From a phage, in the NCBI GenBank assembly GCA_033580375.1, contig GCA_033580375.1_4527.1: a stretch of DNA of 64,000 nt; one strand, written 5' to 3'. The notes beneath the pieces are model-generated. The model did not search any database and was not told where the DNA came from. It saw nothing but the letters and a program-made list of their open reading frames with translations. The position numbers and the translations under genes were made by a program. Shown here piece after piece: positions 13,092 through 52,570 of the stretch (positions are counted from its first letter, which is position 1; the number at the start of each line of letters is the position of its first letter).

Positions 13092-13356
13092 CTAATTTCC
13101 TTAATTGATATTGCAACGAGCTAATAATTTCTTCGTTCATTTTAATATACATGTCACGCAAGAAAGGTTTTAACCCTTCACGAATAATTGCTAATGTATC
13201 ACCTTTACATAAATTAACCAAATAAGGATGATCTAAAGCGTCCCAACCAGGCTGATTAGCATACATGCCATAGTTTTCTTCCATCATATGATTAAGACGT
13301 TTGATATCTTGGATACGTGATTCAATAGCATCTTTCTGGAGTTGTTTAATATTCAT
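13075..13356 (-). CDS. hypothetical protein
   Basis: Track ORF, co-directional, start abuts next ORF stop. Confidence 0.4.
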   Translation of the reverse strand: MNIKQLQKDAIESRIQDIKRLNHMMEENYGMYANQPGWDALDHPYLVNLCKGDTLAIIREGLKPFLRDMYIKMNEEIISSLQYQLRKLDDENN

Positions 13357-13817
13357 TAATAAAGGTCCTCTGAATAAAGTTCTTTCTCACTTCCACCACG
13401 TTCAATACGCACCTGTCCAGCATACGTTGCAATAATCATTGCTTCTTCGCGCGTCCAGTAATTAGAGTATTGGTCAATAAAGCCTTGGTCGTCACCACAA
13501 ACTTGTTGCGAGACTAATTGAGGACCAACTATATCAAGTACTTCAGCCATATCTTTAGAGTAATGACGAACTCCAGGAATAACCAGAGTTCCACCACTCT
13601 TCAATTTAAACCTATTAGCTGCACATACTATAACACGTTGAACTTTTTGGTCATTATTCCAATAACACGTTTGCCAACAGATTTCAGGAACTTCATTCAT
13701 TATATCATCAGCAGAATAATTATAACCGTAGGACTGGAATTTTTCTGCTAGACTTTCAGGAGTCTCACGAGACAAGGCCAAATCTAATAGCTCTAAACGT
13801 TCTTTAAATGATTTCAT
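13356..13817 (-). CDS. hypothetical protein
   Basis: 153-aa track ORF with ATGA-type overlap to neighbours. Confidence 0.45.
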
Positions 13818-14143
13818 TTAAACCATTCCTTAATACGTTGCCAAATAGATTTTTGTGCTTGTTTATTTACACCAATCGAACGAATAACAGGTTGTGACTG
13901 CTGATATTCTTTATAATCTTCTTTATAGATTTCGTAAGCCGCATCAACAAATGAACTGATCGCTGCCATGTAGTTTTTACGAAGGCCAAATGGCGCATCA
14001 TTATTTTCACGAATAACCGTATATTGGCCTGCTTTAATCTTTACAATTGTCCCTAAATAAGCCCCGTGGTACCAAATATCCCATCCTTCCTGAGTAGGTT
14101 CTGCACATTTACGAAGTTCGTTAATAATATTCAGCTTATTCAT
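13814..14143 (-). CDS. hypothetical protein
   Basis: 109-aa track ORF immediately downstream of motA. Confidence 0.45.
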
Positions 14144-14153
14144 TATGTATTCC

Positions 14154-14786
14154 TCACAGTACGTTAGTTACAAGGGTAATGATTTCTTTGGACACATTAG
14201 GGAAGTCAATGTAAGTATATTTACCACCGATCTTAATCTTAACATCATTTTCAAGAGAAGTAAACAGCTTTGATTCAGTTTCTGACATGTTGTATGCAAA
14301 GATTCTAAGAGCGCCGTCTCGTCGAATTTCAATTTGGCGAATGCCTAGAACTCGTTTTGCAAATCGAACTTCTAAGTTACTACGGTTTTCACCAATTTCT
14401 TTAACTTCAACTTTATCTTTAATATTTTCAAAAACAAAGTTTGCTAATTCATGCATTTCAGGAGTAACTCCACGTGCTTTTCTGGTGTTACGTTTCTGAA
14501 GAAGTTCTGGAGCATTTTCTTGAGCAAATAGGTCTGCAGCTTTTTGGATAATATCCATTGCTTCGCCGGTTGCCACAAGTCCATCACCAGATTTTTCGAC
14601 TAAACCTTTCTTAATCAATACACCAATGTTAGAGTTAACAACTGATGCATTGTATTCTGCTTCCAGAGCTTCACGGACATTGGCAGCAGTGGTGAAGTTG
14701 TTCTTAATGATATAAACCATTATTGCAGCAGTTTTTTCATTCAGAGCGTTTTCAGAAGCTTTGATGATGTAAGTAACTTTAGACAT
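14154..14786 (-). CDS. motA: Middle-transcription activator MotA
   Basis: 210 aa (T4 MotA 211 aa); position between asiA region and gene 52; preceded by early promoter. Confidence 0.8.
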   Translation of the reverse strand: MSKVTYIIKASENALNEKTAAIMVYIIKNNFTTAANVREALEAEYNASVVNSNIGVLIKKGLVEKSGDGLVATGEAMDIIQKAADLFAQENAPELLQKRNTRKARGVTPEMHELANFVFENIKDKVEVKEIGENRSNLEVRFAKRVLGIRQIEIRRDGALRIFAYNMSETESKLFTSLENDVKIKIGGKYTYIDFPNVSKEIITLVTNVL

Positions 14787-22552: not shown

Positions 22553-23653
22553 TTACGCTGTGAAGATTTTATCCCACATTGCAACAACTGCATCTCGGTT
22601 ATACTTCTTCCATACTGCTTCAGCACGTTTAACTCGAGCTTCGTACGTGTCAGTGAATTCTAATACAGCTTTTGTGTAAAGCGCAACTACTTCTTTCTTA
22701 GGAGTAGAGGAATCAATTTCTACACGCACAGTATCTGGGTCATATTCGAATGTCGCATGCGGATAATCCTTAAAAACTAACTGAATTACAGGGACACCTT
22801 TAGAGATGGCTTCAATAGAACTATTCTCTACCGTACCCGTGTCAGGACACGTATTAATAAGTGCTTTAGCTGTTTTAAGACGTTCCATGATTTCACTGTG
22901 TGGAGCATCAATAATAACAGGATACTTAGCTGGTGGTGCCCATTTGCTTGGACAATAACCAATACCATTTTCGCCTAGTGCTTTAATCGCTTCAAGAGCA
23001 ACATCAGTACGACGCATCTTAGTGTCATAACGTTGAGCACTAATAATCAAATCAGTTGCTGGAAGAACTTCAGGTTTCTCATTCAAACAAATAACCGGAT
23101 AATCTTCGGCTTCAAACAACGGATTTGCTCGCCAATAATCATAATCAATTTTGTCAGTCAGACCCGAAGTCATATAACAATATTTACGTTCAAATTCACG
23201 GAAGGCTTTAGTAGGAGCATAACTCTTACCACCATTCTTATGAATTTGAATAGTCTGGTCCCAAATTTGAACAATGCCACGAGATACCGGTTCAAATGGT
23301 GTTGCCATAAAATTCTTATGAACTTTAGAGAGACCTGCGTCTTTAATTGCCTGAACGGTTAGTTTGGTCGGTTCCATTGTAACAACGAAATCGTACTCAT
23401 TAATGCCGGCTAGTTCAACAATCTTACGAGCCATAGTATAACTCATACCTAGACTGAATTTAGTCAGATGACCAACAGGATGGTGTGTAACTTTCCAATC
23501 ACCAAATGTGTCATTATCAAAACCAATATAATCAATATCAGCACCGATGGACACAAGATATTTCAACACATTTAAATGTACTGCTTCAAGACCACCTTGT
23601 ACACGCTCTGGGTTAAACGGGACTGCGCGAGATGGGATAAACATAACTTTCAT
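22553..23653 (-). CDS. Putative GT-B-fold glycosyltransferase (candidate DNA hmC glycosyl/arabinosyl-transferase)
   Basis: 366 aa at the rIIA-39 junction where T4 carries gene 60/mobA; C-terminal E..SIEAISKGVPVIQ resembles the GT1/GT4 E-x7-E donor-binding region; size typical of GT-B enzymes. Confidence 0.5.
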   Translation of the reverse strand: MKVMFIPSRAVPFNPERVQGGLEAVHLNVLKYLVSIGADIDYIGFDNDTFGDWKVTHHPVGHLTKFSLGMSYTMARKIVELAGINEYDFVVTMEPTKLTVQAIKDAGLSKVHKNFMATPFEPVSRGIVQIWDQTIQIHKNGGKSYAPTKAFREFERKYCYMTSGLTDKIDYDYWRANPLFEAEDYPVICLNEKPEVLPATDLIISAQRYDTKMRRTDVALEAIKALGENGIGYCPSKWAPPAKYPVIIDAPHSEIMERLKTAKALINTCPDTGTVENSSIEAISKGVPVIQLVFKDYPHATFEYDPDTVRVEIDSSTPKKEVVALYTKAVLEFTDTYEARVKRAEAVWKKYNRDAVVAMWDKIFTA

Positions 23654-27894: not shown

Positions 27895-28380
27895 TTAAGC
27901 TTTACGAGGAGACACATAACGAGTGATTTCGGATTCTTTAACAACTCTGAAGTCACCTAAGAATACGATATTGTATAACTTTTCACCATCTTCAACCCAT
28001 TGGTCACTAATGAAGCCACACATAGTATCAGTTTTGCTTGGATAACCGTATTCATCGATGAAGTCAAATTCTTTATCAGTCTGGAATTCAACACCTTTAC
28101 ACAAGGCCCATTTGAACTGTGCATTATGCTCTGTGGATTCAACTTTTTCTCTTGAAGCAAAAGCACTACTCACAGGCGTTTCCAAGAACTTTGCACGAAC
28201 ATAAGCAAATTTGGTTTCCTGTGTCCCAAAACTAGGAATAATACGAACTTTTACCTCAGAATCTTCATCTTTAACGCCTTCTTTAAGTTGAATACTTACA
28301 ACTTCGACCAATTTTCCTGCGGCTTTAGAACGAGATTTGTTAGATACGCGAACGATTTCACCAATAATACCAAGATTCAT
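27895..28380 (-). CDS. hypothetical protein, paralog family member 2
   Basis: 161 aa; paralog of 27466..27885. Confidence 0.5.
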   Translation of the reverse strand: MNLGIIGEIVRVSNKSRSKAAGKLVEVVSIQLKEGVKDEDSEVKVRIIPSFGTQETKFAYVRAKFLETPVSSAFASREKVESTEHNAQFKWALCKGVEFQTDKEFDFIDEYGYPSKTDTMCGFISDQWVEDGEKLYNIVFLGDFRVVKESEITRYVSPRKA

Positions 28381-28444: not shown

Positions 28445-28939
28445 TTAATTAAGGATATTAACCACAGCACTACGTGGAACTACACTAAAATCACCTGCAT
28501 GAACAACGTTCAGAAGTTCAACACCGTCTTCAATCCACTGGTCAGTTACCCATCCATTTACTGGATAAGCGAACGGGCGTCGAATTGAAACATATTTACA
28601 CAGCAAATCAGTAGGCTCAATAGGCTTAATCAGAGTACCGTACATACAAGCGATATCCATATCAATACAGACGTCTTTAACGGGTTCTACTTCTTCAATC
28701 AACAGTTCAAAGTCGGTGCTTGGAAGGGCGGTAGTAGAAATTGTATCGTATGAATTTTTAATTTCTAAGAATAACCAAGGGCCTTCAGCTTGTTTGATGA
28801 AGTTAACAATAGTGAAACTATTACCTTGAGTGGCACCTAAAATTTCACAAAACTTTTCGTAAGCTCGCACTGAAGCACTGTACCAGTTGATTTGTTTTTC
28901 GTCTTTCAGGATGTAAGTAGCCGTAGTATTGATATTCAT
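28445..28939 (-). CDS. hypothetical protein, paralog family member 3 (C-terminal module only)
   Basis: 164 aa; C-terminus WVTDQWIEDGVELLNVVHAGDFSVVP matches the family motif. Confidence 0.5.
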   Translation of the reverse strand: MNINTTATYILKDEKQINWYSASVRAYEKFCEILGATQGNSFTIVNFIKQAEGPWLFLEIKNSYDTISTTALPSTDFELLIEEVEPVKDVCIDMDIACMYGTLIKPIEPTDLLCKYVSIRRPFAYPVNGWVTDQWIEDGVELLNVVHAGDFSVVPRSAVVNILN

Positions 28940-34878: not shown

Positions 34879-35415
34879 TTAGTACCCATTATCCTGACGT
34901 TCAAAGTTGTGTTGGTTTTTCAAGTAGTAAAGTTTAAAGATTTCTTCAGCCGAAAGACCTAGACCCTGGAACATATTTAGAACGAAATGCAGAATATCAA
35001 TCATTTCAAATTTAATTTCAAGTTGGTCTTCAGGAGACAGTTCATCGATACGACGATTTCGATATTCAGCATGTTGTGCTTTCCAAGGCTTCCATACACT
35101 GCTGGCAGCTTTTTCACCATTGCTCATACCACCAAGTGAAGTCAGCAGTTCACGGAATTCATCATCAATATAATCTTTCTGATTACGCAGCCAATCAACA
35201 ACATCGCCAGCAGTGACCAATTCATCAGGATGTTTGTTATGTTCAGGCTTGTCATTTGCCAGACGAACCTGTAAAGATTTCTGCATATCAAGCATTACCT
35301 GCAGTGGGTCTTTATCTTCGTGAATCAGAGCATTAAAATAAGCTTCTTCTGCTTTATCAACACCAGAAATAAGTTGTGAACATTCATTAAAGTGTGCCAT
35401 TATTTTTCCTTTCAA
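34879..35415 (-). CDS. 56: dCTPase/dCTP pyrophosphatase gp56 (MazG-like)
   Basis: 178 aa (T4 gp56 171 aa); position between soc and primase. Confidence 0.8.
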   Translation of the reverse strand: MKGKIMAHFNECSQLISGVDKAEEAYFNALIHEDKDPLQVMLDMQKSLQVRLANDKPEHNKHPDELVTAGDVVDWLRNQKDYIDDEFRELLTSLGGMSNGEKAASSVWKPWKAQHAEYRNRRIDELSPEDQLEIKFEMIDILHFVLNMFQGLGLSAEEIFKLYYLKNQHNFERQDNGY

Positions 35416-37431: not shown

Positions 37432-38091
37432 TTAACCTCGATTCATAAATGCATTAAATATTTGGTCATCAACAGAAATTTCTAATTCGACTTCAATTGC
37501 TTCAGCCTTTTCTTCAGGTGGTAATTCGTATCCACACACTACAATTTTTTCATCGATATCAAAATATACAGAAGCAATATGATTAATGTTATTTTCAGTT
37601 AAGTCTAAATCAACATCAACATCTTTTTGACCTACACTTAAAGGATAACTAATACGGGTTATTTTATTATCTTTAACAAAGAGTCCACCAACATACTCTG
37701 TACTACGTTTGAAGTTTACACGTTTCCGAATTGAAAGATATGATGCATCTTTACCGTGGGCTCGGCTCATAGGACATAATGAATAACTAGAATAAGAGAT
37801 ATCAAATCCTACGCCTTCAACATGTGCCAGAGTATCATGAGTAAACCAATTATAGTCGTATGCCAAATCCATTAAATTATAATATGTGAATGGAACCGGA
37901 TTAACGTCATACGTTGTACCTTTAAAATCTGCCCAGGCAACGATTTCGTTATCTTTAACAATTACAAAAATTACACCAATATGGTATCCGTTATTATTTT
38001 CATTCGGCGTTATATTATAACATTGTGCATTAGGAAATTTACCATATTTAAATGGCGCGTTTTTGTGCATATAATAAATCATATTATTCAC
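37432..38091 (-). CDS. hypothetical protein
   Basis: 219-aa track ORF. Confidence 0.45.
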   Translation of the reverse strand: MNNMIYYMHKNAPFKYGKFPNAQCYNITPNENNNGYHIGVIFVIVKDNEIVAWADFKGTTYDVNPVPFTYYNLMDLAYDYNWFTHDTLAHVEGVGFDISYSSYSLCPMSRAHGKDASYLSIRKRVNFKRSTEYVGGLFVKDNKITRISYPLSVGQKDVDVDLDLTENNINHIASVYFDIDEKIVVCGYELPPEEKAEAIEVELEISVDDQIFNAFMNRG

Positions 38092-41663: not shown

Positions 41664-42026
41664 TTAAAAGAATTTAAATTTTTTCTTGGTTCGTTCATTA
41701 AAAGCTTGTTGTACCTGCATTGTAACACATTTTTCAACATGCGGCGCAAGTTCTGCTTTTCTGTCCTGGTCAAGAACTGCAAAGTCCATTACGATTTTAC
41801 CATCAACCCAGTCTAGTTTTGTAATATAGACTATATGATGAGAACCGTCTTCAAGTGTAATCAGAATCTCTTGAATGACGTTTTCCATTGCTGAACGGAT
41901 AATTTTAAGAGATTCATTAAACACTCGTTCTTTGCGAATGTCTTCCCCTTCCGAAGAAGGGGATTCATCAACGATTTCTAGATTTAAATCATCGAGATTA
42001 TTCATCGAAATCTTCCATTTCGTCAA
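41664..42026 (-). CDS. hypothetical protein at the gene 40 position
   Basis: 120-aa track ORF between uvsX and 41; assignment positional only. Confidence 0.4.
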   Translation of the reverse strand: MTKWKISMNNLDDLNLEIVDESPSSEGEDIRKERVFNESLKIIRSAMENVIQEILITLEDGSHHIVYITKLDWVDGKIVMDFAVLDQDRKAELAPHVEKCVTMQVQQAFNERTKKKFKFF

Positions 42027-43170
42027 GGTCGTTTTCTATATCTGCTGCAGATGGAGCATCAGAAGTTTTAACCGGAACTTTAGTTGTTGCTTTGCAATTA
42101 ATAAGGTCGTTAACTGCGTCATCAACTTCTTTAATAGAAGAGATAGCGCCTAGTTTATATTTAGTTTCAATTGCATCTCGGAAAGGTTTGTGTTTAAACA
42201 ACGGTCCCCAGAATTCTACGCAATCAGTAGCTTTAGCACGCCATGATTTCTCTTCACGAATCATTTCACCTGTTTCTTCGTCAAGGAATTCACGAGCATA
42301 CCAACCGGCTTTAGGTTTAACCACAAAACCAATTTCAGTTGCCATTTCTAACAAGCCACTGAATGGGTCAATACCGCCATCAAAATTAACCGTGATCGGG
42401 AAAGTAGATTTCTCTTTAACAGTACGAGATTTTTCTGCTTTCAACGTGAAGTCATAACCGGTCAATTCTGTACCTTCTTTAACCTGACGTTTAGAGATAA
42501 AGAATACAGTGTTAGCAGAGTAAAGAATACCTGTACCACCACCCATAATCTCTTTAGGATATAGTCCACCGATTTCCATTGCTGTATGGTTAATTGCAAC
42601 ACATGGAATATCTTTAATAGTCAGATACGGGGTCACAATACGGAACAGAGATTTAAGTGCCTTAGCACGAGACATATCACCTACGACTTTCTCGTTCAAT
42701 GCATCTTCGGTTTCTTTCTTAGATGCAGTATTACCGATTGAATCGATAAAGATAATAACTTTATCACCGCGTTCAATAGCGTCAAGCTGATTAGTCATAT
42801 CAACTTTAAGTTGTTCGACGGACTGAATTGGTGTGTGAACTACACGGTCTAAATCAACACCCATTGAACGAAAATAAGATTCTGAAGCACCGAATTCTGA
42901 ATCATAGAACAAACAAATTGCATCTTTATATTTCTTCATATACGCTGCAACCATGGTCAGCCCAAACAATGTTTTAAAATGTTTAGAAGGTGCAGCAAAA
43001 ATAGTCAAGCCTGATTGCAATCCTGCATTCAGAGCACCACCTAGTGCAATATTCAACATCGGAATACGAGTAGGGACTTCATCGCGATTATTAAACAGCT
43101 TAGACTTAGTCAAGTCTGCAGTCATTTTAGAAGTAGAAGCTTTAATCAGACGAGATTTTAAATCAGACAT
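41998..43170 (-). CDS. uvsX: RecA-like recombinase UvsX
   Basis: 390 aa (T4 UvsX 391 aa); N-terminus MSDLKSRLIKASTSK.TA.L.KSK.FN..D...RIPMLNIALGG; RecA core. Confidence 0.9.
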   Translation of the reverse strand: MSDLKSRLIKASTSKMTADLTKSKLFNNRDEVPTRIPMLNIALGGALNAGLQSGLTIFAAPSKHFKTLFGLTMVAAYMKKYKDAICLFYDSEFGASESYFRSMGVDLDRVVHTPIQSVEQLKVDMTNQLDAIERGDKVIIFIDSIGNTASKKETEDALNEKVVGDMSRAKALKSLFRIVTPYLTIKDIPCVAINHTAMEIGGLYPKEIMGGGTGILYSANTVFFISKRQVKEGTELTGYDFTLKAEKSRTVKEKSTFPITVNFDGGIDPFSGLLEMATEIGFVVKPKAGWYAREFLDEETGEMIREEKSWRAKATDCVEFWGPLFKHKPFRDAIETKYKLGAISSIKEVDDAVNDLINCKATTKVPVKTSDAPSAADIENDLDEMEDFDE

Positions 43171-43269: not shown

Positions 43270-43818
43270 TTAACGAGCCCATTTGATGATTTCTGTAATC
43301 AAATCATTACGTTCGCTTGCATTAAATCCTATAACTTTGTTAGCACCATCATGATTAAGTAATTGATACGTTTGGATTTTGTTATGAATTGCAAACTCTT
43401 CAAAATGTGAAATGACTGTATTAAAACTGAGTGAAGACAAAGTAATAAGATCGTCTTCAAAACTTTCAGTCATTTCGTTACGTGTTAAAATAATTGTGAA
43501 CACGTCATGGTTTTGGCAAAGACGAACATAATCCTGCTCATAAACATCAAGAACCGAGTCCGCATCTTGTCGAATACGTCCATAAACCCAGTTACTAATA
43601 TATCCACGGTCTAACAGATAAATCTTAGTAGGGTCTAAATAATTCAACATCGTTTCGAAACAACCAACTTCATTTCGAGACTTAACATCGAAACGTCCAT
43701 CAACTGTTCGTTTAGGGAAATCAATCTTTACATATCTTTCACTAATTTCCATTATGACATTAATGAAAGTTGTTTTGCCGGCATTATCTGGGCCATCTAC
43801 TAAAATAATTTTAGCCAT
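43270..43818 (-). CDS. P-loop kinase-like protein (thymidylate/dNMP-kinase fold); function unknown
   Basis: 182 aa; Walker A ILVDGPDNAGKTT near N-terminus, DRGY motif (LLDRGYISNWVYG) like the DRY/DRX motif of nucleoside monophosphate kinases. Occupies the slot of T4 beta-gt. Confidence 0.5.
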   Translation of the reverse strand: MAKIILVDGPDNAGKTTFINVIMEISERYVKIDFPKRTVDGRFDVKSRNEVGCFETMLNYLDPTKIYLLDRGYISNWVYGRIRQDADSVLDVYEQDYVRLCQNHDVFTIILTRNEMTESFEDDLITLSSLSFNTVISHFEEFAIHNKIQTYQLLNHDGANKVIGFNASERNDLITEIIKWAR

Positions 43819-43819
43819 T

Positions 43820-44716
43820 TTATTCCTCGATTACGACATCTTCGTATTTAGGTATATTATACGGCGAAGAAATTAAAGCATTAAAGTAGATGAACTCACC
43901 AAGACCTGGATGGAATACTTCTTCAGGATTTTCGAAATATTGAATCTTCGGACGTCCTTTAAGAATTTGATAGTACTCAGTTTTAGTTGGTTTAAAAATT
44001 CGAATCAGCGCTTCTTCAGGATACTTATTTCTGTCGAAGCTATTATTTGGATCGGTTATATAAAGTGGTTGTCCTAATTGAATTGCACATTCAACCACTT
44101 GTTCAAAATGATAACACGGATCACTAATTCGAAATGGATGAAAAATACCATCTACATGAATAGGAGCCAAATCACCTACAAGACGCTGCATGATGGAAGG
44201 ACGTATAACTTTCTGCGTTACGATAATCTTATTATCTGCGCCAGCGTTAACCAGCACTTCTTTTTGACGTTCATTCAACACAGTAGTTTGAAGTGAACGA
44301 TTAACCGACAACATGTCGGTTTTTAAGAATTCGTCAATATAAAAACGTGGTTTATTAGGGTCTGCAGTGATATTGAAATTGAATTCTACATCAAAAGCGC
44401 CGTCATATCCAGTGATATCTGTGATTAGAAAATCACAATCATAATAAGCAATTAATGAATCAACAACAAATTCATTTTCAGACCAGAAATATTTACGAGT
44501 GTTATACGCGTTATCTTTATACCATAATGGAACAAACTTAAATTCTGGGAAAAGACGTTCACATTCTTTAATATCAGATGCATTACGTGGATATGTAATC
44601 ACATCACCCGGATTAGCACGGTGCAAATGAAGTTGGAAGTTGCCATCCTTAAGGATAGCATACTGTCCAGTTTCATAAGACCGCATACTCAAGATTGGTA
44701 CGCGGAAAATAGCCAT
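43820..44716 (-). CDS. hypothetical protein (298 aa) in beta-gt position; no motif recognised
   Basis: Track ORF tightly packed (2-nt gap to next gene, 1-nt overlap with gene 42 homolog). Confidence 0.4.
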   Translation of the reverse strand: MAIFRVPILSMRSYETGQYAILKDGNFQLHLHRANPGDVITYPRNASDIKECERLFPEFKFVPLWYKDNAYNTRKYFWSENEFVVDSLIAYYDCDFLITDITGYDGAFDVEFNFNITADPNKPRFYIDEFLKTDMLSVNRSLQTTVLNERQKEVLVNAGADNKIIVTQKVIRPSIMQRLVGDLAPIHVDGIFHPFRISDPCYHFEQVVECAIQLGQPLYITDPNNSFDRNKYPEEALIRIFKPTKTEYYQILKGRPKIQYFENPEEVFHPGLGEFIYFNALISSPYNIPKYEDVVIEE

Positions 44717-45432
44717 TAGTCAAGGAATCCTTTAACATAATCAAAATCACGTTCAAACACATGGGCACTTACCATGGTATGAGTATAATCACCAACTTCT
44801 ACACCGCATTCGTTAGCGATATAATGAAGTAATTTTCCTTGGAGATAAAAATCCAACTGCATAACAACAGCACAGTTCTGAGAACGCATATGACAGTGGG
44901 TATAAAGCTTACCATCACGAATATAATAAGTCACTGAGTCAGTACATGGATATTCAAGTGTTTCATCTGAATCAAGCAAAGCCTGATCAGAACTTTCTAG
45001 AATTTGGAACACAACTCTTCGAGAGTTAGGTTTTTCTTTAAGTTCTTTTAGAAGAGCTGGTAATTGAGCCGCAATGCGAGGACCATAGAAAGTGTTGAAG
45101 TTTGCAGGCAAAGCATCTGATTTTGGTTTAGAAATAAATTTAGCGACATTAGGATATGCCTTAAACGCTTCTTCTGCATCAGTACCACCGGAAATCATAA
45201 ACTTCCAGAAGTCTTCGGCATATTCATAAGATATGCGATTAATACGTGGGTCGGTCATTTTGAATGATGATGGAGTGTCAACAACTACTGTCATAGACCC
45301 AATTTCATTACAACGTCCAATACGAGAATCAGTTACGAATTCTGGGTTTTCTAAAATTTCACGATTGACTGCTTTAAATGCGGTTTGAAAATCTGCGGCT
45401 TTGATATATTTCATTGTGTTATGTTTTCCCAT
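44716..45432 (-). CDS. 42: dCMP hydroxymethylase (thymidylate-synthase superfamily), gene 42 homolog
   Basis: 238 aa; catalytic region YPCTDSVTYYIRDGKL...HMRSQN...MQLDFY aligns by eye with T4 gp42 FMCTNTVQYLIRDKKI...NMRSND...FRNDY (Cys148 nucleophile, Asp179 equivalent retained). Confidence 0.7.
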   Translation of the reverse strand: MGKHNTMKYIKAADFQTAFKAVNREILENPEFVTDSRIGRCNEIGSMTVVVDTPSSFKMTDPRINRISYEYAEDFWKFMISGGTDAEEAFKAYPNVAKFISKPKSDALPANFNTFYGPRIAAQLPALLKELKEKPNSRRVVFQILESSDQALLDSDETLEYPCTDSVTYYIRDGKLYTHCHMRSQNCAVVMQLDFYLQGKLLHYIANECGVEVGDYTHTMVSAHVFERDFDYVKGFLD

Positions 45433-45557
45433 GTTTACCTCAATACAATTTATTATATACTCAATTCGTAAAGCTTATTTGAATTTCTTGGCAATGTTGA
45501 TATAACGTAAAGCTTCAGCATCGATACTTCCAAGAACACTATGAAGAAATGCATCAG

Positions 45558-45713
45558 CTTAGTATTCTAATTGAACAGGTTCTTTAATCACTTTAGCCGC
45601 TTTGGTTTCAAACAGGCCCATAAGGGCCTTTTTAAGAATTTGTTCGTTAGTGTTCAGTTTCATAGTCAAAATCTCTTCATTAAGTTTATAATTAAAAGCT
45701 TTTCTAGAAATCA
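45558..45713 (-). CDS. small ORF (~51 aa) translationally coupled (ATGA) to the U32 gene; coordinates approximate
   Basis: Hand translation MISRKAFNYKLNEEILTMKLNTNEQILKKALMGLFETKAAKVIKEPVQLEY; start overlaps U32 stop. Confidence 0.25.
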
Positions 45714-46871
45714 TTCCGGGTACCTCAAAGCGTCATCAGAGTTAGTTATATCAATAATAGATATGGAGTTTTCTGCTAACCCGTTTTTAGATAATTGACG
45801 TTTGTAATATCTTTCACAATATGTACACGTTGACCCACAGATTTCATTAGCACAATCGAAATCCGGATGTCTGAACCACCTTTTTTCTAAAAAGCCATCT
45901 AACAAAGAGGTTTCAATATTTACTGTATGTGAAAACTCAGTCTCATTTTCAAGAGTGAAAATAGTCTCTAAAGGCTTCCACAGTTCTAACAAATTACCTT
46001 CAAACTTTTCAGAAGCGTATGCTTCAAGAACTTTCAAAATGTAGTCTGTGCTACCTGTACGTCCTGAAACTTTGAATTGAGTGATACCAATATCATTATA
46101 AAGTTTCAAATCTTGAGGACGAACAAAACGAGTTCTCAGCCAGTTAAATGGGTCTGTATCACGAGCTTTAATGCAGTGTTGCATTGGATATCCATTTAAG
46201 GATTTAGCATCATCAGCGGTAACATCAGTACTATGGAAAATATAGCAAGAGTCACGATAACTACAATGTGTTGTATACCCTTTACCAGCATTAGAACAGA
46301 ACTCATTTACAAGAACTTCAAATATTATATTGTTCTTATTGCAAAACTCTGCTGCACGCTTCAGGAAAGAAACTGAACGGTTCTTATGAATTCCACAGCA
46401 GACCTTTTTGATATTATATTGGTCATGCAAGTATTTGATTTGAGTTACGGCATCAACATGTAGAATTGTTGAAACTTCAATCTCAATATCTTTATTGACT
46501 TCACGAACAATTTCCATAACAACAGGGTTAGCGATAGTAATACGCCATACACCTATTGACCAAAGATACTGAACATAATCCTGAATAGCTTTCTTCTTCC
46601 ACTCAACTAGTTCTCTTTTTGAACCAGGATTTATCGTGTTGAGTGTATAGTTAAAGCAAATACCTAATTCGTTACAACGTTTAACATAGTCTTCTAACAT
46701 TTTTTTGTCAACGTCAGGAAGCCTAAAATCAGGTCTGGCTGCTACAAAAGCCATTTCTCTTGTAGAGCCATATACTTCGTTTATCAAGCTATTAGGATAA
46801 GTTTTATTGAGCTCTACGATTTTATCAAGAAGAGCTAAATCAAAATTCGTTCCGATTTTAAAAGTATTCAT
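45711..46871 (-). CDS. Peptidase-U32-family protein (RlhA/TrhP/UbiU-like putative oxygen-independent hydroxylase)
   Basis: 386 aa; N-terminal TIM-barrel signature NEVYGS...FVAARPDF...ICFNYTLNTI (cf. U32 DAVY.G...NAR.F...YVTLNTL), central ITIANPVVMEIVRE...EIEVS and Cys cluster EFCSNAGKGYTTHCS, plus C-terminal CANEICGSTCTYC. Confidence 0.6.
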   Translation of the reverse strand: MNTFKIGTNFDLALLDKIVELNKTYPNSLINEVYGSTREMAFVAARPDFRLPDVDKKMLEDYVKRCNELGICFNYTLNTINPGSKRELVEWKKKAIQDYVQYLWSIGVWRITIANPVVMEIVREVNKDIEIEVSTILHVDAVTQIKYLHDQYNIKKVCCGIHKNRSVSFLKRAAEFCNKNNIIFEVLVNEFCSNAGKGYTTHCSYRDSCYIFHSTDVTADDAKSLNGYPMQHCIKARDTDPFNWLRTRFVRPQDLKLYNDIGITQFKVSGRTGSTDYILKVLEAYASEKFEGNLLELWKPLETIFTLENETEFSHTVNIETSLLDGFLEKRWFRHPDFDCANEICGSTCTYCERYYKRQLSKNGLAENSISIIDITNSDDALRYPE

Positions 46872-46929
46872 TTTTTTGCATCTCGCGTTAATTGATGCGA
46901 TGGGTTTTTTGCAGGTCTTACTTAAATTA

Positions 46930-47331
46930 TTATAGATTCGGTTTATACGATTTAAATGTTTCGAATTCGCCTTTATTCATAAGAGCTTTGAATTCGTCAG
47001 GACGCATAGCTTTGTCGTCGATAATCCAATCATATACTGGTTTATGTGTTAGCAAATTATGGTACTTCAAACCAATGTTTTCCAAGTTCTGAATCAGACT
47101 TGGGAGAATGTCAATTGCTATACGACCAGGACCTACTGACTTCATACCACGAGCAGTGTAAAGCGTTATGGTATGCCCTGCATCATACAGGGCATTAATG
47201 GCGGTCACCATTTCGACGTCTGGTTTGAAGTTCGCGTAATCACGATTGTTATTCCATTCCGTGATGCAATCATCGACATCAAAACAAAGATTAAGCATGT
47301 TTTCTACACGGCGCATTAGATTCGTTCCCAT
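46930..47331 (-). CDS. HAD-superfamily phosphatase (KdsC-like sugar-phosphate phosphatase)
   Basis: 133 aa; HAD motif I FDVDDCIT, motif II LYTAR, motif IV YDWIIDD. Confidence 0.6.
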   Translation of the reverse strand: MGTNLMRRVENMLNLCFDVDDCITEWNNNRDYANFKPDVEMVTAINALYDAGHTITLYTARGMKSVGPGRIAIDILPSLIQNLENIGLKYHNLLTHKPVYDWIIDDKAMRPDEFKALMNKGEFETFKSYKPNL

Positions 47332-49001
47332 TGATGAGTGATATCGCCACCGATTGGACGATAGGAAACACCAGTTTCTTTATCAGTTAGTACCCATTTA
47401 CCAGGATTTTTTGTAATCAGAGTAGCCGTTACAGGTTCTGCTACGTCATAACTAATAGAGCCGTCTTGAAGTACACGACCCATGTTACGTAATTGCTTAG
47501 TCAGAAGTTCCATACCTTTATAATATGCGGCTACCGCTTTAAGTGGATTATTCTTGAAATAACCACCTAATGCAATCCAGATAATCGCCACTGCCAAATG
47601 ATGATACTCGTTAAACGAACTCATCTTTCCATATTTGTAAACTAATGGATTGATGTTAATAGTCACATTACAAGTTGTTTCGTCAATAGTAAACTGTCCC
47701 CAGGTCGGATTAGCATTGAATTCATCATAACCTGAAACAGCATAAAGCACTTTAGCTTCATCGTACAATTTTGGCCCGTAAATCTTGGTTTCACCAAAAT
47801 ATCCACGAGGGTCGATAAACTTGACTTCGCCGTTATCAGTAATCATAGTATTACTGAAGTTCGGGTCACCGTGAATAACAGAGTACTGTCCCTGAGAACG
47901 GTTATGATAACGAATAAGGTGTTCTAAAGCTTGTTTCAACATTGGCTTCAGACGTCCAATCTTAGTGTAGTTCACATGTGTGATTTTACCAAATGAATCA
48001 ATCAATGGTTGAATGCTTTCACAACGATCAATAACTTTCGTATAGAATTCTTTAGTGAAATCACGACGAACAGTTTCAGGACTTACAAAATAAATGTCTG
48101 TGCTGAATTTCAGTGCATCTAAAATTGCATCAACAATTTGTGGACGAGCAAGACTTGATTTGGATTTAATATATTCAAATGCTGGCTTACCTTTAATGCG
48201 TTCCATTTCAAAGTTATTTTCATTAACAGAAACTAACTGAGGAACTGAATCTGATTTTACTTTCAAATACCATGAAATCTCATCTTTTTGAAGAGCTCGT
48301 CCCTGTTCTGTTAATGCGAATTTAGTTACAGTTTCTTCACCAATTTCAACTGCATTAAAACTACGATTAAGTTCACGAACTTCATGAGCCTTTTCAAGTT
48401 TAGGCATATCACCTAAATCAATTAGATTCATAAGCTCTGATTTATTGAATGCACTGCCGTAAAGGAATTCTACAAAATCACGTCCTTTACAGTATTCGTG
48501 AATTTCCTCGTCAGTAGAACCCATGTAGAATTCCCAGTCTTTGAACTGATAAATTCCTACAACATTACCGCCTGTTGAACCTACGTTAGTGATATTTTCA
48601 CCATCGAAATTATATCGACATTCATCACCCTTAACATAGATTGCGTTAACATTCCAAGACCATGAACCAAAATCTGGAATAATATCACACCAGTTAACAA
48701 CTACGTTATGGCCGTCTAAATCTTTATGTAATTTAGCAAGAGCATAAGCAGAACCATACGCTTCATCAACTGTACGAATAGTCACATTGAACCCTTCTTG
48801 CTCACAATAAGCTCGAACAGTTTCAGCAAATTTTGAATGAACTACTACAATAATTTCATCTGCACCAAGGTCAGAATAAATTGTATACAAATTGCTCAGA
48901 ATAGTGTCTTGTTTATAGTTCACAAGAACTTTTGGAATATGGTGAGTAATTGGATATAAACGAGTTGCCAGTCCAGCACCAAGAATAACAGCTTTTTTCA
49001 T
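47316..49001 (-). CDS. Bifunctional sugar-1-phosphate nucleotidyltransferase (N-terminal) / sugar kinase (C-terminal, APH/ChoK-like)
   Basis: 561 aa; N-terminus KAVILGAGLATRLYPITHHIPKVLV matches the RmlA/GalU G-x-G-T-R-L signature; C-terminal HGDPNFSNTMITDNGEVKFIDPRGYFG resembles the catalytic loop of aminoglycoside/choline/anomeric-sugar kinases. Confidence 0.7.
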   Translation of the reverse strand: MKKAVILGAGLATRLYPITHHIPKVLVNYKQDTILSNLYTIYSDLGADEIIVVVHSKFAETVRAYCEQEGFNVTIRTVDEAYGSAYALAKLHKDLDGHNVVVNWCDIIPDFGSWSWNVNAIYVKGDECRYNFDGENITNVGSTGGNVVGIYQFKDWEFYMGSTDEEIHEYCKGRDFVEFLYGSAFNKSELMNLIDLGDMPKLEKAHEVRELNRSFNAVEIGEETVTKFALTEQGRALQKDEISWYLKVKSDSVPQLVSVNENNFEMERIKGKPAFEYIKSKSSLARPQIVDAILDALKFSTDIYFVSPETVRRDFTKEFYTKVIDRCESIQPLIDSFGKITHVNYTKIGRLKPMLKQALEHLIRYHNRSQGQYSVIHGDPNFSNTMITDNGEVKFIDPRGYFGETKIYGPKLYDEAKVLYAVSGYDEFNANPTWGQFTIDETTCNVTININPLVYKYGKMSSFNEYHHLAVAIIWIALGGYFKNNPLKAVAAYYKGMELLTKQLRNMGRVLQDGSISYDVAEPVTATLITKNPGKWVLTDKETGVSYRPIGGDITHQWERI

Positions 49002-49041
49002 GTTGAAGTCCTCATTGGTAAGTAGGAGTATTGTACACTAT

Positions 49042-49185
49042 TCTAGTTAAAGCATTCATACTTTGCTTGTAGTCCAATCATAATCCATCCAATTACAAGT
49101 GTTGGAATCATTACTGGAGCCGTTAAGCTCCAGTAGATAGTCATGACAAGCATCAATAGTAAAAGTCCTATTGTTATTGCTTTCA
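49042..49185 (-). CDS. small hydrophobic membrane peptide (~47 aa), ATGA-coupled to the SIS-domain gene; coordinates approximate
   Basis: Hand translation MKAITIGLLLLMLVMTIYWSLTAPVMIPTLVIGWIMIGLQAKYECFN. Confidence 0.3.
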
Positions 49186-49818
49186 TTGCTCGCCTCGTAA
49201 CATGGCACCTAGAGCACCGCCAGGGTGGAACTTAAGGAAATCATTAGAGGTAAATCCACGTTCAGACGAAAGGTTGATAGCAAACGTATCGATAAGCGCT
49301 AACAACAATGTAGTGGACATGGTCGGAGCTAAAGAGTTCTCGTCAACTTCTACCGCGATACCGGTACAGAACGTATAATCAAAAAGAGCTTCGTATTCTT
49401 GCGGAATGTCAGGGTTACAATGTAACAGAATCTGTTTAACCTGAGGACGAATCATACGAAGATGTTTAGCAACACCTATCATTTCTTCAGTCTTACCAGA
49501 ACGACTGATGTGAACTAATACATCATTAGGTGCAATAAATCCTGCGTCGCCATGAGAATAATGCCCAGTGTTCAAATACATGCTAGGAATACCGAGTGAA
49601 GCAAATGTCTCAGAAGCTTTAGTTGCAATATTAGCATTCTTACCAACACCTGTAATAATTACACGACTTTCATAATTACTCAGTCCAGGGCGTCGAAGAG
49701 TTTCAAGAATAGCATTATAACGAGCAGGGTTTTGACTAATTACTTTGGCCATAGCGGCCAAAGAAGAAGCTTGTTTTATGATTGCGTCAATAGCGATAGT
49801 AATAGGAGTAGTTTTCAT
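49183..49818 (-). CDS. SIS-domain sugar-phosphate isomerase (KpsF/GutQ/KdsD-like arabinose-5-phosphate isomerase, no CBS domains)
   Basis: 211 aa; SIS motifs VIITGVGKNANIATKASETFASLGIPS...HGD...DVLVHISRSGKTEEM and C-terminal HPGGALG. Confidence 0.7.
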   Translation of the reverse strand: MKTTPITIAIDAIIKQASSLAAMAKVISQNPARYNAILETLRRPGLSNYESRVIITGVGKNANIATKASETFASLGIPSMYLNTGHYSHGDAGFIAPNDVLVHISRSGKTEEMIGVAKHLRMIRPQVKQILLHCNPDIPQEYEALFDYTFCTGIAVEVDENSLAPTMSTTLLLALIDTFAINLSSERGFTSNDFLKFHPGGALGAMLRGEQ

Positions 49819-49858: not shown

Positions 49859-52570
49859 TCAAAAATCGAACATATCGAATAGAGATGCTTTCTTCTCGTA
49901 ATCGAGTTTCGCTGCTGATGTGAATCCTTCAAGTGGTTTAATAAATGTCTTCTCAAGGAGAACAGTGTAGTCCATCCAATGAAGTACATCATCTTTGATT
50001 AAATCAGTGATTTCAGTACCAGAAGGCCATGCGATACATTTATCACCGAACGGGTTTCCTTCACGTAAAGGCAGAACATATACTTTTTCACCTTCTACAA
50101 CTTGTGGTGCATCGATATTACCTTTGATAGCCCGGTTATACGTCAGAATTCCACGAATATGGAACGGACATTTAGGACCAGGGAATCCACCTACATCATA
50201 TTTAGCAATGTTATTCGCAGAAGATACCGACGCGATGCTAATATAATTCAATTGACGGAATTCTTTTTCAAACTCTTTAAAATATTCTTGTAATGATTCT
50301 TCACCTTCTTGAAGCATACGACGAATACATTCTTTAAGAGCTTTCTGTACCGCTTTAGGAGTTGAAGATTTCTGTGTTTCGAGACCCATGATTTTGAGTT
50401 TAGGCTCAGCGTAACGAGTACCTTCCATATCCCACACGTTTAATGCATAACGTTTCTTACCAGTCCAGAATCCGCCAATACCTTTAGAACCGAGCGGAGG
50501 ACCAGCGATAGCTTCTCGGTCCATGAACATTAAGTGTTGTTTATTGTTCATGTATTCACACATTTCACGGAAACCTCTATCAATAGCCGGTTCCATACGT
50601 TCACGAGCGAACTTATCTAAGAAGTCTACCCAATGGTTGGTATCACGGAATTTAGATTCACCAACCTTATCAATAATTTTATCTGCAGATACATAAATGG
50701 AGTCTGTATCACCATAAAGAACGAAAGCTTCACCTTCTGTACCACAAACTTCGTTCAGATATTCATTAACTTTACGTTCAATCCACTGTAAAGCCATTTG
50801 CCCGAATGTTGTGATTGCAGTAGCATTACGCAAATCGTAATAACGGAACCAAACGTTTCCAAGTGCACCATAAAGCGAGTTGATGAGTAATTTACGGTTA
50901 ATCTGTGCAGTCATACCTGCAACTTCAGTACGTTGAGCTCTAAACAACATTTCATTAAGAGATTTAGCAGACAACTTTTTAATCTTTTCTTTAATCTCGT
51001 CAGTGAAGTCGAAACGATAATCAACATCTAATGGTTCATCAACAGAAAGATTAGGATTATGCAATGCCTCTTTAATTATTTCACCATTACGTTGAGCTGC
51101 AAGCATGTAACCTTTATGTTCTTTACGCTGATTAAAGACCTTAGTGATTTCGGTTGGAACTACACCATCACGGTCTTTATAATACATCATGCCATTAGGA
51201 GAGCAACTGTACACATCTGAAGGACGTTCAGCAACAGCGTTAATATAATCATGCAATGGAGCTACTTTAAACGTTCCTGCTATTGTTTCTGGGCTAATAT
51301 TCACTTGGCGAATAATACTTGGATACAGAGATGTAAGGTCGAAACTCATTACATATTTGTATCGATTTGGAATAGGTTCCTTAACAAAAGCGCCAGGATA
51401 AGGTTGAACCGGGTGAGAACGACCTTGTGGAATCACCTTGTTCTGCTCTTTAAGGCTATTAAAAATAATAGCATCCCATGTTTTAATTGGGCTAAACACA
51501 GATTGAATCTGTATCTTAGCATAATAACCCATGTCCAAACTCAAGTTGATGAACTGACGCTTAGCATCAATTTGCAATACACGATACACGTCGATAATGT
51601 TATAAGAAATATATCGTTGGTGATTGCTTTCACGAAGCTTAGAAATAGGGCCTTCATATTTCAGTTTACCAACGTTCAATTCAAATTCTGAAATGTAATC
51701 CAGAGAATACGACGGTTGATTGGTAAAAGAGAATTTTTTGTAAAGGTCAATGTAATCAAGAACAGAGATACCGAACAATGTAATGATTTCACGAGAACCA
51801 TACATGTTTTCGATAACTTTAACACGAGTTTTACGATGTGGTGATAAACGTTTCGCAGTAGATTCGCCAAAAATATTCTTGATTCGGTTATACACATATG
51901 GAATATCAAATGACTCAACGTTCCATCCAGTCAAAATGACAGGAGTTTTCTGTTGCCAGAAGTTGAGATATTCCATCAACAATTCTTTTTCGTTATCGAA
52001 CGGCATATAAATGATTTTATCAATAATTTCGGATGGAACTTCATCACCACCTTGTTCTTGAAGCTTAGCCGCAATTTCGATAGACCATTCTTCCACATTA
52101 CCATATGGAGAATTCAATAGATCAAATACGTAGAACCTGTCGTCAATTGAGTCATAATGGGTGATAGCATCAATCGGATGTTTTGCTTGTGACGGCTCAG
52201 GGAACCCATCCGGAGATGTTACTTCGATGTCGAAGTTAGCCACACGAATTTTTGTATGGTCGTATTTGATTTCATAGTTATAAGTGTCAGACAAATACGC
52301 TAATTTGAAATCGTCCATGCCAAGTGCTTCAAGTCCGATATCTTCCATGCGTTTAATCCATTGGGAGGCATCACGCATATTAGCGAACAACTTACGAGTA
52401 CATGGCTTACCGTAGATATCGAAATATTTCGTAGCCTGACTTTCTGGACAATGAGCAAACAGTGATGGTTTATATTCTACTTCACGAGTACGTTCACGGC
52501 CGTTAGAATCGATGTAACGTTCAAAAATTGAATCACCGATCTGTTCAACCGTTAAGTAAAATTCTTTCAT
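49859..52570 (-). CDS. 43: DNA polymerase gp43 (family B, with 3'-5' exonuclease)
   Basis: 903 aa (T4 gp43 898 aa); MKEFYLTVEQIGDSIFERYID N-terminus, exo motifs (FDIE), pol motifs (SLYPSII, YGDTDS). Confidence 0.95.
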   Translation of the reverse strand: MKEFYLTVEQIGDSIFERYIDSNGRERTREVEYKPSLFAHCPESQATKYFDIYGKPCTRKLFANMRDASQWIKRMEDIGLEALGMDDFKLAYLSDTYNYEIKYDHTKIRVANFDIEVTSPDGFPEPSQAKHPIDAITHYDSIDDRFYVFDLLNSPYGNVEEWSIEIAAKLQEQGGDEVPSEIIDKIIYMPFDNEKELLMEYLNFWQQKTPVILTGWNVESFDIPYVYNRIKNIFGESTAKRLSPHRKTRVKVIENMYGSREIITLFGISVLDYIDLYKKFSFTNQPSYSLDYISEFELNVGKLKYEGPISKLRESNHQRYISYNIIDVYRVLQIDAKRQFINLSLDMGYYAKIQIQSVFSPIKTWDAIIFNSLKEQNKVIPQGRSHPVQPYPGAFVKEPIPNRYKYVMSFDLTSLYPSIIRQVNISPETIAGTFKVAPLHDYINAVAERPSDVYSCSPNGMMYYKDRDGVVPTEITKVFNQRKEHKGYMLAAQRNGEIIKEALHNPNLSVDEPLDVDYRFDFTDEIKEKIKKLSAKSLNEMLFRAQRTEVAGMTAQINRKLLINSLYGALGNVWFRYYDLRNATAITTFGQMALQWIERKVNEYLNEVCGTEGEAFVLYGDTDSIYVSADKIIDKVGESKFRDTNHWVDFLDKFARERMEPAIDRGFREMCEYMNNKQHLMFMDREAIAGPPLGSKGIGGFWTGKKRYALNVWDMEGTRYAEPKLKIMGLETQKSSTPKAVQKALKECIRRMLQEGEESLQEYFKEFEKEFRQLNYISIASVSSANNIAKYDVGGFPGPKCPFHIRGILTYNRAIKGNIDAPQVVEGEKVYVLPLREGNPFGDKCIAWPSGTEITDLIKDDVLHWMDYTVLLEKTFIKPLEGFTSAAKLDYEKKASLFDMFDF

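Follow-up and report, generated by a model that had tools for sequence, protein, structure and literature searches.

What stands in place of the T4 modification genes between uvsX and gene 43 in an RB69-like phage, and does every gene found there fit a single pathway? We asked this of a 6.5-kb island (43270–49818) in a phage DNA stretch of 64,000 nucleotides (nt), contig GCA_033580375.1_4527.1 of assembly GCA_033580375.1, the whole of which is called the window below. Its protein sequences leave little doubt that the island is the cytosine hypermodification module of Mosigvirus (RB69-type) phages, placed at the hot spot for modification genes of T4. As such it is already known from work published between 2018 and 2026 (the cluster of Thomas 2018, Mahler 2025, He 2026 and Lee 2026): the chemistry, the key enzymes and the role against host defences have been described, and the window adds one more Mosigvirus copy. 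The only new lead in the island is the gene of a U32-family protein (45711–46871). We propose, with a probability of roughly 0.5 to 0.55, that this protein provides a second, O2-independent and prephenate-dependent route to the same 5-hydroxypyrimidine nucleotide that the module would otherwise form with O2.

The interval between uvsX and gene 43

According to the list of open reading frames (ORFs) and the junction sequences, the interval is made up of nine co-directional ORFs on the minus strand, arranged head to tail. They and their flanks are as follows (aa, amino acids; TS, thymidylate synthase; dCMP, deoxycytidine monophosphate; UDP, uridine diphosphate; P, phosphate):

41998–43170: uvsX, island flank, with gp40 and gp41 on the same side (annotation of the near-identical phage Bas47)
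43270–43818, minus strand: thymidylate-kinase-like P-loop nucleotide kinase (RB69 gp45), 182 aa, 97.8% identical to RB69 gp45
43820–44716, minus strand: GT-B glycosyltransferase, predicted DNA arabinosyltransferase 1 (RB69 gp46:47), 298 aa, GT-B fold, 1-nt overlap with the TS homologue
44716–45432, minus strand: predicted 5-hydroxy-dCMP synthase, TS-fold, flavin/O2-dependent (RB69 gp48), 238 aa, Thymidylat_synt, 100% identical to RB69 gp48
45475–45714, minus strand: gp49 slot, small Mosigvirus-specific ORF, truncated to 51 aa (45559–45714) by a TAA at 45559–45561
45711–46871, minus strand: U32-family protein, putative iron-sulfur (Fe-S) protein (RB69 gp50), 386 aa, Pfam Peptidase_U32 (PF01136) 42.2 bits, above the cut-off of 22.4
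46930–47331, minus strand: HAD phosphatase (RB69 gp51; AfhF), predicted to convert arabinose-1,5-bisphosphate to arabinose-1-P, 133 aa, 96.2% identical to RB69 gp51
47316–49001, minus strand: predicted bifunctional arabinose-5-P 1-kinase/UDP-arabinose pyrophosphorylase (RB69 ORF53_52c; HY126 AfhE), 561 aa, 99% identical to RB69 gp52:53
49043–49186, minus strand: gp54 micro-ORF, 47 aa, two hydrophobic segments, ATG overlapping the SIS stop codon (ATGA), 100% identical to RB69
49183–49818, minus strand: predicted SIS arabinose-5-phosphate isomerase (RB69 gp55), 211 aa, 97.6% identical to RB69 gp55
49859–52570: gp43, opposite flank, with regA, 62 and 44 (annotation of the near-identical phage Bas47)

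The island DNA is 96.6% identical to that of RB69 over 6694 nt, and the encoded proteins are 96–100% identical to RB69 gp45–gp55. Megablast with the island returned 259 phage records, 152 of which match 80% or more of its length at 95–99% identity; among the matches listed with at least 80% coverage, all are Mosigvirus-type phages. The window shares with the RB69 gp45–gp55 and HY126 Afh clusters the genes, their order, the position between uvsX and gene 43 and the use of a single strand, and in both the window and RB69 a second transferase is encoded at the rIIA–39 junction. All sequence-level features that define this cluster and that we looked for were found. Three window proteins, namely the hydroxylase, the phosphatase and the second transferase, are near-identical to PDB entries of the 9iq* and 9ir* series. 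Only two differences from RB69 were seen: the premature stop in gp49 and two ORFs that are split in the RB69 record NC_004928.1 (RB69p046/047 and RB69p052/053) and intact in the window. The single window ORFs of 298 and 561 aa agree with the sequencing errors that the literature reports for the RB69 record.

For RB69, the gp45–gp55 cluster has been assigned to the synthesis of arabosyl-5-hydroxycytosine (PMC13326640, PMC6024577). The base in the DNA of this phage is 5-hydroxycytosine, to which one or more arabinofuranoses are joined by an ether bond, and gp55, gp52:53, gp51 and gp46:47 have been assigned to the path from ribulose-5-P over UDP-arabinofuranose to the transfer to DNA (Lee et al. 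2026, PMC13326640). In the account given there, this assignment leaned on AfhE and AfhF of HY126, described by He et al. 2026 (PMC13326640).

The compactness of the interval had led the sequence-only reading to regard it as one functional unit rather than a set of independent insertions. This view holds, since the same block at the same position is the RB69 gp45–gp55 pathway cluster and is kept across many Straboviridae genera. The overlapping or near-abutting reading frames are real as well, with two ATGA overlaps, one overlap of 16 nt and one of 1 nt, and family searches upheld the domain labels (Thymidylat_synt, Peptidase_U32, NTP_transferase together with weak kinase matches, SIS and HAD). 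The competing explanation sees the island as a patchwork, put together by independent insertions into a plastic site, and its compactness as no more than the usual gene packing of T4-like phages. The region between uvsX and gene 43 is indeed known to be plastic (PMC6024577), homing endonuclease genes are inserted there in some relatives, SIS, U32 and chorismate mutase genes are each missing in some genera, and neither gp49 nor gp54 is linked to the pathway. However, a core set of TS homologue, glycosyltransferase, thymidylate-kinase-like kinase, HAD and nucleotidyltransferase/kinase genes travels together in phages of Escherichia, Acinetobacter, Pseudomonas and Shewanella, and the enzymes of the cluster make up one published pathway. 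Composition points the same way: the content of guanine plus cytosine (GC) is 0.363 in the island and 0.372–0.376 in the flanks, and neither GC content nor its value at third codon positions (GC3) nor codon usage, a comparison that had been proposed as a check, separates it from the flanking genes, which argues against recent import. Conserved co-occurrence and the published biochemistry largely refute the patchwork explanation, which we regard as highly improbable.

The equivalent interval of T4 contains segA, beta-gt, 42, imm and imm.1; beta-gt, 42 and imm had been listed correctly before, and segA and imm.1 had been omitted. The island genes are thus not the set found here in T4 as a phage with glucosylated hydroxymethylcytosine. 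The two loci nevertheless resemble each other in more than their genomic slot, as in both a TS-fold enzyme would alter C5 of dCMP before replication and a GT-B enzyme would glycosylate the new hydroxyl group in DNA. They differ in the product of the first step, which is predicted to be the 5-hydroxy compound for the island and is the 5-hydroxymethyl compound in T4, and in the cofactor, predicted to be flavin/O2 for the island enzyme (D169N, W80A) and folate for T4 gp42. The sugar differs too: the island would use arabinofuranose, the donor of which is made by three extra phage enzymes, whereas T4 draws on UDP-glucose of the host.

Base and sugar branches of the module

The steps described in this section have been shown or predicted for RB69 or HY126, and we infer them for the window from the high identity of the proteins. 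The TS homologue, which would open the base branch, is about 99% identical to the proteins in PDB 9iqc, 9ir2 and 9iqu, and has 24.8% identity to T4 gp42 over 218 aa. Aligned with E. coli ThyA and T4 gp42, it keeps Cys146, L143E and N177D, as gp42 does. Position 169 is Asn, where both ThyA and gp42 have Asp, and position 80 is Ala, so that Trp80 is lost. D169N has been described as the signature of 5-hydroxy-dCMP synthases and N177D as a mark of dCMP preference (PMC13326640). RB69 gp48 binds flavin and converts dCMP to 5-hydroxy-dCMP with oxygen from O2, as followed by 18O2 labelling (PMC13326640). The former label 'gene 42 homolog' is therefore right in that the protein is a TS-fold relative of gp42, and misleading in view of the low identity, the D169N exchange and the activity of the identical RB69 protein. 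On the same grounds, and because of Ala80, we rejected a dCMP hydroxymethylase of the T4 gene 42 type. The enzyme would hydroxylate dCMP at C5 with flavin and O2, and 5-hydroxy-dCMP would then be phosphorylated and incorporated in place of deoxycytidine triphosphate (dCTP).

The sugar branch would begin with the SIS protein, a KpsF/GutQ-like isomerase that matches Pfam SIS at 38.8 bits and the NCBIfam models KpsF/GutQ at 110.7 bits and KdsD at 105 bits, both under the curated cut-offs. Its PDB matches include 3etn (E 1e-24) and the arabinose-5-P isomerase 2xhz, and the isomerase role of gp55, from ribulose-5-P to arabinose-5-P, has been predicted before (PMC13326640). Arabinose-5-P, the presumed product of this first step in the window as well, would receive a further phosphate from the kinase part of the 561-aa fusion protein and so become arabinose-1,5-bisphosphate. 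The HAD phosphatase would strip off the 5-phosphate, and the nucleotidyltransferase half of the fusion would finally yield UDP-arabinofuranose. In the fusion, Pfam NTP_transferase covers residues 3–99 and weak matches to kinase families lie around residues 310–409; the activities of its HY126 counterpart AfhE are those of He et al. as reported in PMC13326640. The HAD ORF, which overlaps the fusion ORF by 16 nt, encodes a protein that matches an NCBIfam subfamily of capsule-biosynthesis phosphatases at 50.8 bits and the near-identical PDB entry 9iqw at E 4e-85.

Transfer to DNA would fall to the protein encoded at 43820–44716, formerly labelled 'unknown', which has a glycosyltransferase fold of the GT-B type and is predicted to attach the first arabinose to the 5-hydroxycytosine of DNA. 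The 182-aa kinase-like protein encoded next to it has, as its sole family match, a weak P-loop match to dTMP kinase; RB69 gp45 matches thymidylate kinases by fold (PMC13326640). The deoxynucleoside monophosphate kinase and the dCTPase of RB69 are encoded outside the gp45–gp55 cluster (PMC13326640). Two genes of the window outside the island are relevant in this regard:

22553–23653, minus strand: predicted second arabinosyltransferase (RB69 ORF003c), between rIIA and gene 39, 98.6% identical to RB69 ORF003c
34879–35415, minus strand: MazG/dUTPase_2-like protein, tentative candidate for a gene 56-type dCTPase whose role would be to exclude dCTP, Pfam dUTPase_2 30.4 bits

The first of these, which would add the second arabinose, matches PDB 9iqz and 9ir0 with E 2e-249, 9iqz being labelled 'phage HY126 glycosyltransferase'. 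As judged from this homologue, the island is not self-contained, the second transferase being encoded about 20 kb away. A comparable gene set is gp76–gp83 of the Acinetobacter phage DLP3, whose DNA contains tri-arabosyl-5-hydroxycytosine: it likewise comprises a TS-type hydroxylase, a thymidylate-kinase-like kinase, HAD, nucleotidyltransferase/kinase and SIS proteins and GT-B transferases. DLP3 differs in that it has additional transferases and neither a U32 protein nor a chorismate mutase. Its host is a strict aerobe. Re-annotation of the cluster is useful, as most database records call its products 'hypothetical', 'peptidase', 'thymidylate synthase' or 'dCMP hydroxymethylase'.

The U32 protein and its possible role

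Of all proteins of the cluster, the U32 protein is conserved best, with 76–87% identity to its counterparts in other genera, compared with 63–83% for the TS homologue and 40–72% for the transferase. An AlphaFold2 model (pLDDT 90.2) found the U32 protein 5d88 as its best PDB match with Foldseek (E 2.8e-7) and otherwise generic TIM barrels; a sequence search against the PDB gave no match. In an alignment of 32 homologues, ten cysteines, among them C203, C209, C233 and C340/C345/C349/C352, are invariant, as is Glu190. Most database records make this protein a collagenase-like peptidase, in line with the 'peptidase' annotation of many relatives and the name of the Pfam family. However, those U32 members for which a cellular role has been demonstrated are hydroxylation factors, and ten invariant cysteines as well as the shikimate-pathway neighbours described below would not suit a protease, so that we give this annotation almost no credence.

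Among the E. coli paralogues, the U32 profile matched RlhA best (E 2e-5), followed by TrhP (3e-3), UbiU (0.012) and UbiV (0.14). The RlhA match spans 203 columns and places E190, C203 and C209 of the phage protein on E161, C169 and C176 of RlhA. C169 and C176 of RlhA are essential for the formation of 5-hydroxycytidine in 23S rRNA (PMC5727448), and E162, C170 and C177 in TrhP's U32 motif are indispensable for that of 5-hydroxyuridine (PMC6599085). U32 hydroxylases are independent of O2 and require both Fe-S clusters and prephenate (PMC5727448, PMC10990095, PMC6599085); for UbiU/UbiV, prephenate has been identified as the oxygen donor (PMC10990095). By analogy with what is presumed for RlhA, TrhP and UbiU/UbiV, the phage protein would depend on an Fe-S cluster, with prephenate as its oxygen source, and would act on dCMP or a related nucleotide. 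The resemblance to these systems has three sides: the U32 domain with its Glu/Cys/Cys motif, two of the known enzymes hydroxylating C5 of a pyrimidine; an O2-dependent counterpart, which is TrhO or UbiI/H/F there and would be the TS-fold enzyme here; and a link to the shikimate pathway, which takes the form of neighbouring genes in relatives of the phage. On the other hand, the phage proteins form a divergent clade with only a weak NCBIfam match to UbiU, have an extra Cys4 motif at the C-terminus, and probably act on a deoxynucleotide or DNA instead of RNA or a quinone.

As the characterized pyrimidine-hydroxylating U32 enzymes act on RNA and RlhA is the best-matching paralogue, the phage protein, together with chorismate mutase where present, could also hydroxylate RNA and thereby tune translation, for instance at U34 of phage or host tRNA or at C2501 of 23S rRNA, its position in the cluster being incidental. 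We consider this improbable. With 386 aa compared with 653 aa for RlhA, the phage protein is without the latter's long C-terminal region, its gene lies inside a DNA-modification cluster in T4-like loci, and in distant contigs it is found among genes of nucleotide metabolism, replication, sugar nucleotides and transferases (dCMP deaminase, thymidylate-kinase-like kinase, NT5C, dNK, glycosyltransferase).

Gene neighbourhoods also speak for our proposal of prephenate-dependent hydroxylation. In 13 of 15 T4-like loci from IMG/VR, a chorismate mutase gene with a significant Pfam match directly follows or precedes the U32 gene. In other genera, the chorismate mutases encoded next to U32 in Entb_45, LC53, Thanatos-2, a Klebsiella phage, phiR1-RT, Pm5461 and PEi20 score 33–47 bits against Pfam CM_2 (cut-off 27). 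Arg, Arg, Lys, Glu, Ser and Gln are invariant in the phage chorismate mutases, with the spacing of the catalytic residues of the E. coli enzyme. The U32–chorismate mutase pair stays joined even when it lies elsewhere in the cluster (Thanatos-2) or in reversed order (L020, another viral locus).

Distant U32 homologues with 39–56% identity are found in viral contigs, the largest of which measures 466 kb. No TS homologue of the 5-hydroxy-dCMP synthase type was found within up to 10 kb on each side of these genes; one locus has an ordinary ThyA-like gene. Their neighbours are genes for AfhE-like fusions, SIS and HAD proteins and dCMP deaminase, and a GT1-like transferase or thymidylate-kinase-like kinase gene lies directly upstream. 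A DAHP synthase is also encoded; it scores 237 bits for the DAHP synthase subfamily and only 63 bits for KDO8P synthase. Four loci (L050 and L052–L054) have a DAHP synthase–chorismate mutase unit two genes upstream of U32, and in L050 (8411–9433) the two were confirmed as a single fused protein, preceded by a SIS and an AfhE-like gene. A phage of the L050 type seems to be equipped with genes of its own for the supply of prephenate. In lineages in which no 5-hydroxy-dCMP-synthase-type homologue was found near U32, the U32 protein may be the sole hydroxylase that feeds the formation of glycosylated hydroxypyrimidine DNA, and some of these phages would bring DAHP synthase and chorismate mutase along to supply the oxygen donor. 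We see an even chance that the U32 protein and the wider viral clade are O2-independent, prephenate-dependent C5 hydroxylases of a pyrimidine deoxynucleotide or of DNA.

The frequent proximity of U32 homologues to sugar-nucleotide genes (AfhE-like, SIS, epimerase) would also fit a reductase or another redox enzyme that acts on a sugar or heterocycle and makes or trims the arabinose donor. RB69 gp50 indeed bears the label 'sugar or heterocycle reductase' in Table 1 of PMC13326640, where it is never discussed. Still, UDP-arabinofuranose can be reached from ribulose-5-P by the published path without any redox step, DLP3 and KARL-1 make the same modification or encode the same pathway without U32, and the recurrent linkage to chorismate mutase and DAHP synthase points to prephenate, which the known U32 enzymes use for hydroxylation. 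A redox function in the sugar branch is unlikely in our view, if somewhat less so than a function on RNA.

Two further distant loci deserve mention for their gene content. L049 has an insertion directly upstream of its U32 homologue, an IS605 OrfB/TnpB-like gene with a Cas12f1-like TNB domain (8689–9951). L013 encodes a second, very diverged U32-like protein (13227–14360) beside a radical SAM/SPASM gene and 5 kb from the first U32 gene; NT5C, dNK and a gene resembling nucleoside deoxyribosyltransferases are found on the same contig.

Why a phage should possess two enzymes for the same hydroxylation might be explained by its host. In phages of facultative anaerobes, the flavin/O2 enzyme would serve in air and the U32 protein under anoxia, mirroring the host pairs TrhO/TrhP for tRNA and UbiIHF/UbiUV for ubiquinone. 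Since the flavin enzyme needs O2 and these phages replace all of their cytosine and infect gut bacteria, an anaerobic route through U32 would allow DNA synthesis in the anoxic gut. U32 is absent from the clusters of the Acinetobacter phages KARL-1 and DLP3 and of the Pseudomonas phages examined. In the phage collection no U32 match below 80% identity was found, yet 65 Acinetobacter records carry the TS homologue; for Acinetobacter phages, absence of U32 refers to this search, to one inspected locus and to the published gene list of DLP3. The rule that U32 is present whenever the host is a facultative anaerobe holds only in part, the exception being the E. coli phage JS10.

JS10 (Dhakavirus) is one of several points that speak against a prephenate-dependent hydroxylase: its host is a facultative anaerobe, and no U32 gene was found in the 14.7 kb of its cluster region examined. 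No chorismate mutase gene adjoins U32 in the window, in any Mosigvirus or in phage Marfa, and these phages would therefore depend on PheA/TyrA of the host. The profile match to RlhA is modest: its probability is 77%, and it takes in the N-terminal U32 core only. Three jumbo-phage-like contigs with Pol III alpha, UDG and SSB genes (L012, 7447–9086; L019, 6504–8083; L060, 9540–11086) have a dCMP deaminase gene directly upstream of U32, which suggests that a hydroxylated uracil nucleotide may be made there and hints at a different substrate. The reductase label in the RB69 study counts on the same side. Finally, a full-text search of the accessible literature gave no function for gp50; He et al. 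2026 and Mahler et al. 2025 were outside its scope and may assign or exclude one.

If the proposal of an O2-independent route is true, it would explain how these phages replicate in the anoxic gut despite the O2-requiring enzyme behind their full cytosine replacement. Prephenate-dependent hydroxylation would then extend from RNA and quinones to DNA precursors, and many uncultured viruses would be likely carriers of hydroxypyrimidine-based DNA hypermodification. The fitness of the phages would differ with oxygen, a matter of relevance to phage therapy with Mosigvirus-type phages.

Micro-ORFs, candidate promoters and other genes

Two micro-ORFs had been counted as part of the unit. Their ATGA coupling is real, but both are probably passengers, one encoding a putative small membrane peptide and the other being a fast-evolving, often truncated ORF confined to Mosigvirus. 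The latter occupies the gp49 slot, which is filled by the chorismate mutase gene in other genera; its start overlaps the U32 stop codon as ATGA. The TAA that ends it in the window corresponds to TAC (Tyr52) in Bas47, the frame remains open to 45475, and the RB69 gene is annotated at its full 240 nt. Truncated forms of 47–58 aa recur in public Mosigvirus sequences and gp49 varies more than its neighbours; given the recurrent truncation, the gene looks dispensable or decaying. We considered gp49 as an AroQ chorismate mutase and rejected this, as neither the window ORF nor full-length Bas47 gp49 matched a Pfam family and hhalign against the profile of the phage chorismate mutases gave E 0.53. A 33-aa ORF at 45453–45554 lies in a frame other than that of the gp49 remnant, has no family match and is probably spurious. 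The second micro-ORF, gp54, is 41–64% identical in other genera, and its LC53 homologue is annotated with transmembrane segments. Searches of domain libraries returned no family match for gp54, which might be a small protein of the membrane with no part in DNA modification.

With regard to transcription, for which the sequence-only reading had suggested co-regulation of the genes, a sigma-70 scan found 24 sites versus 26.9 expected, which is no excess over chance, and no terminator on the minus strand. Three MotA-box-like sequences lie inside the island. The matches at 49056 and 43882 (first base, minus strand) read AATGCTTTA, followed after 12 nt by TACAAT or TATAAT. The former is situated just upstream of the nucleotidyltransferase/kinase gene and the latter just upstream of the thymidylate-kinase-like gene, which suggests that these matches are candidate internal promoters of the island.

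Elsewhere in the window, a full-length homologue of AdfA (anti-DarT factor A) is encoded on the minus strand at 37432–38091 (Pfam, 398.6 bits). Two adjoining ORFs of the MotB family, also on the minus strand, are found at 27895–28380 and 28445–28939; one is a strong match (179.8 bits) and one is diverged (35.7 bits), and they apparently represent a tandem duplication.

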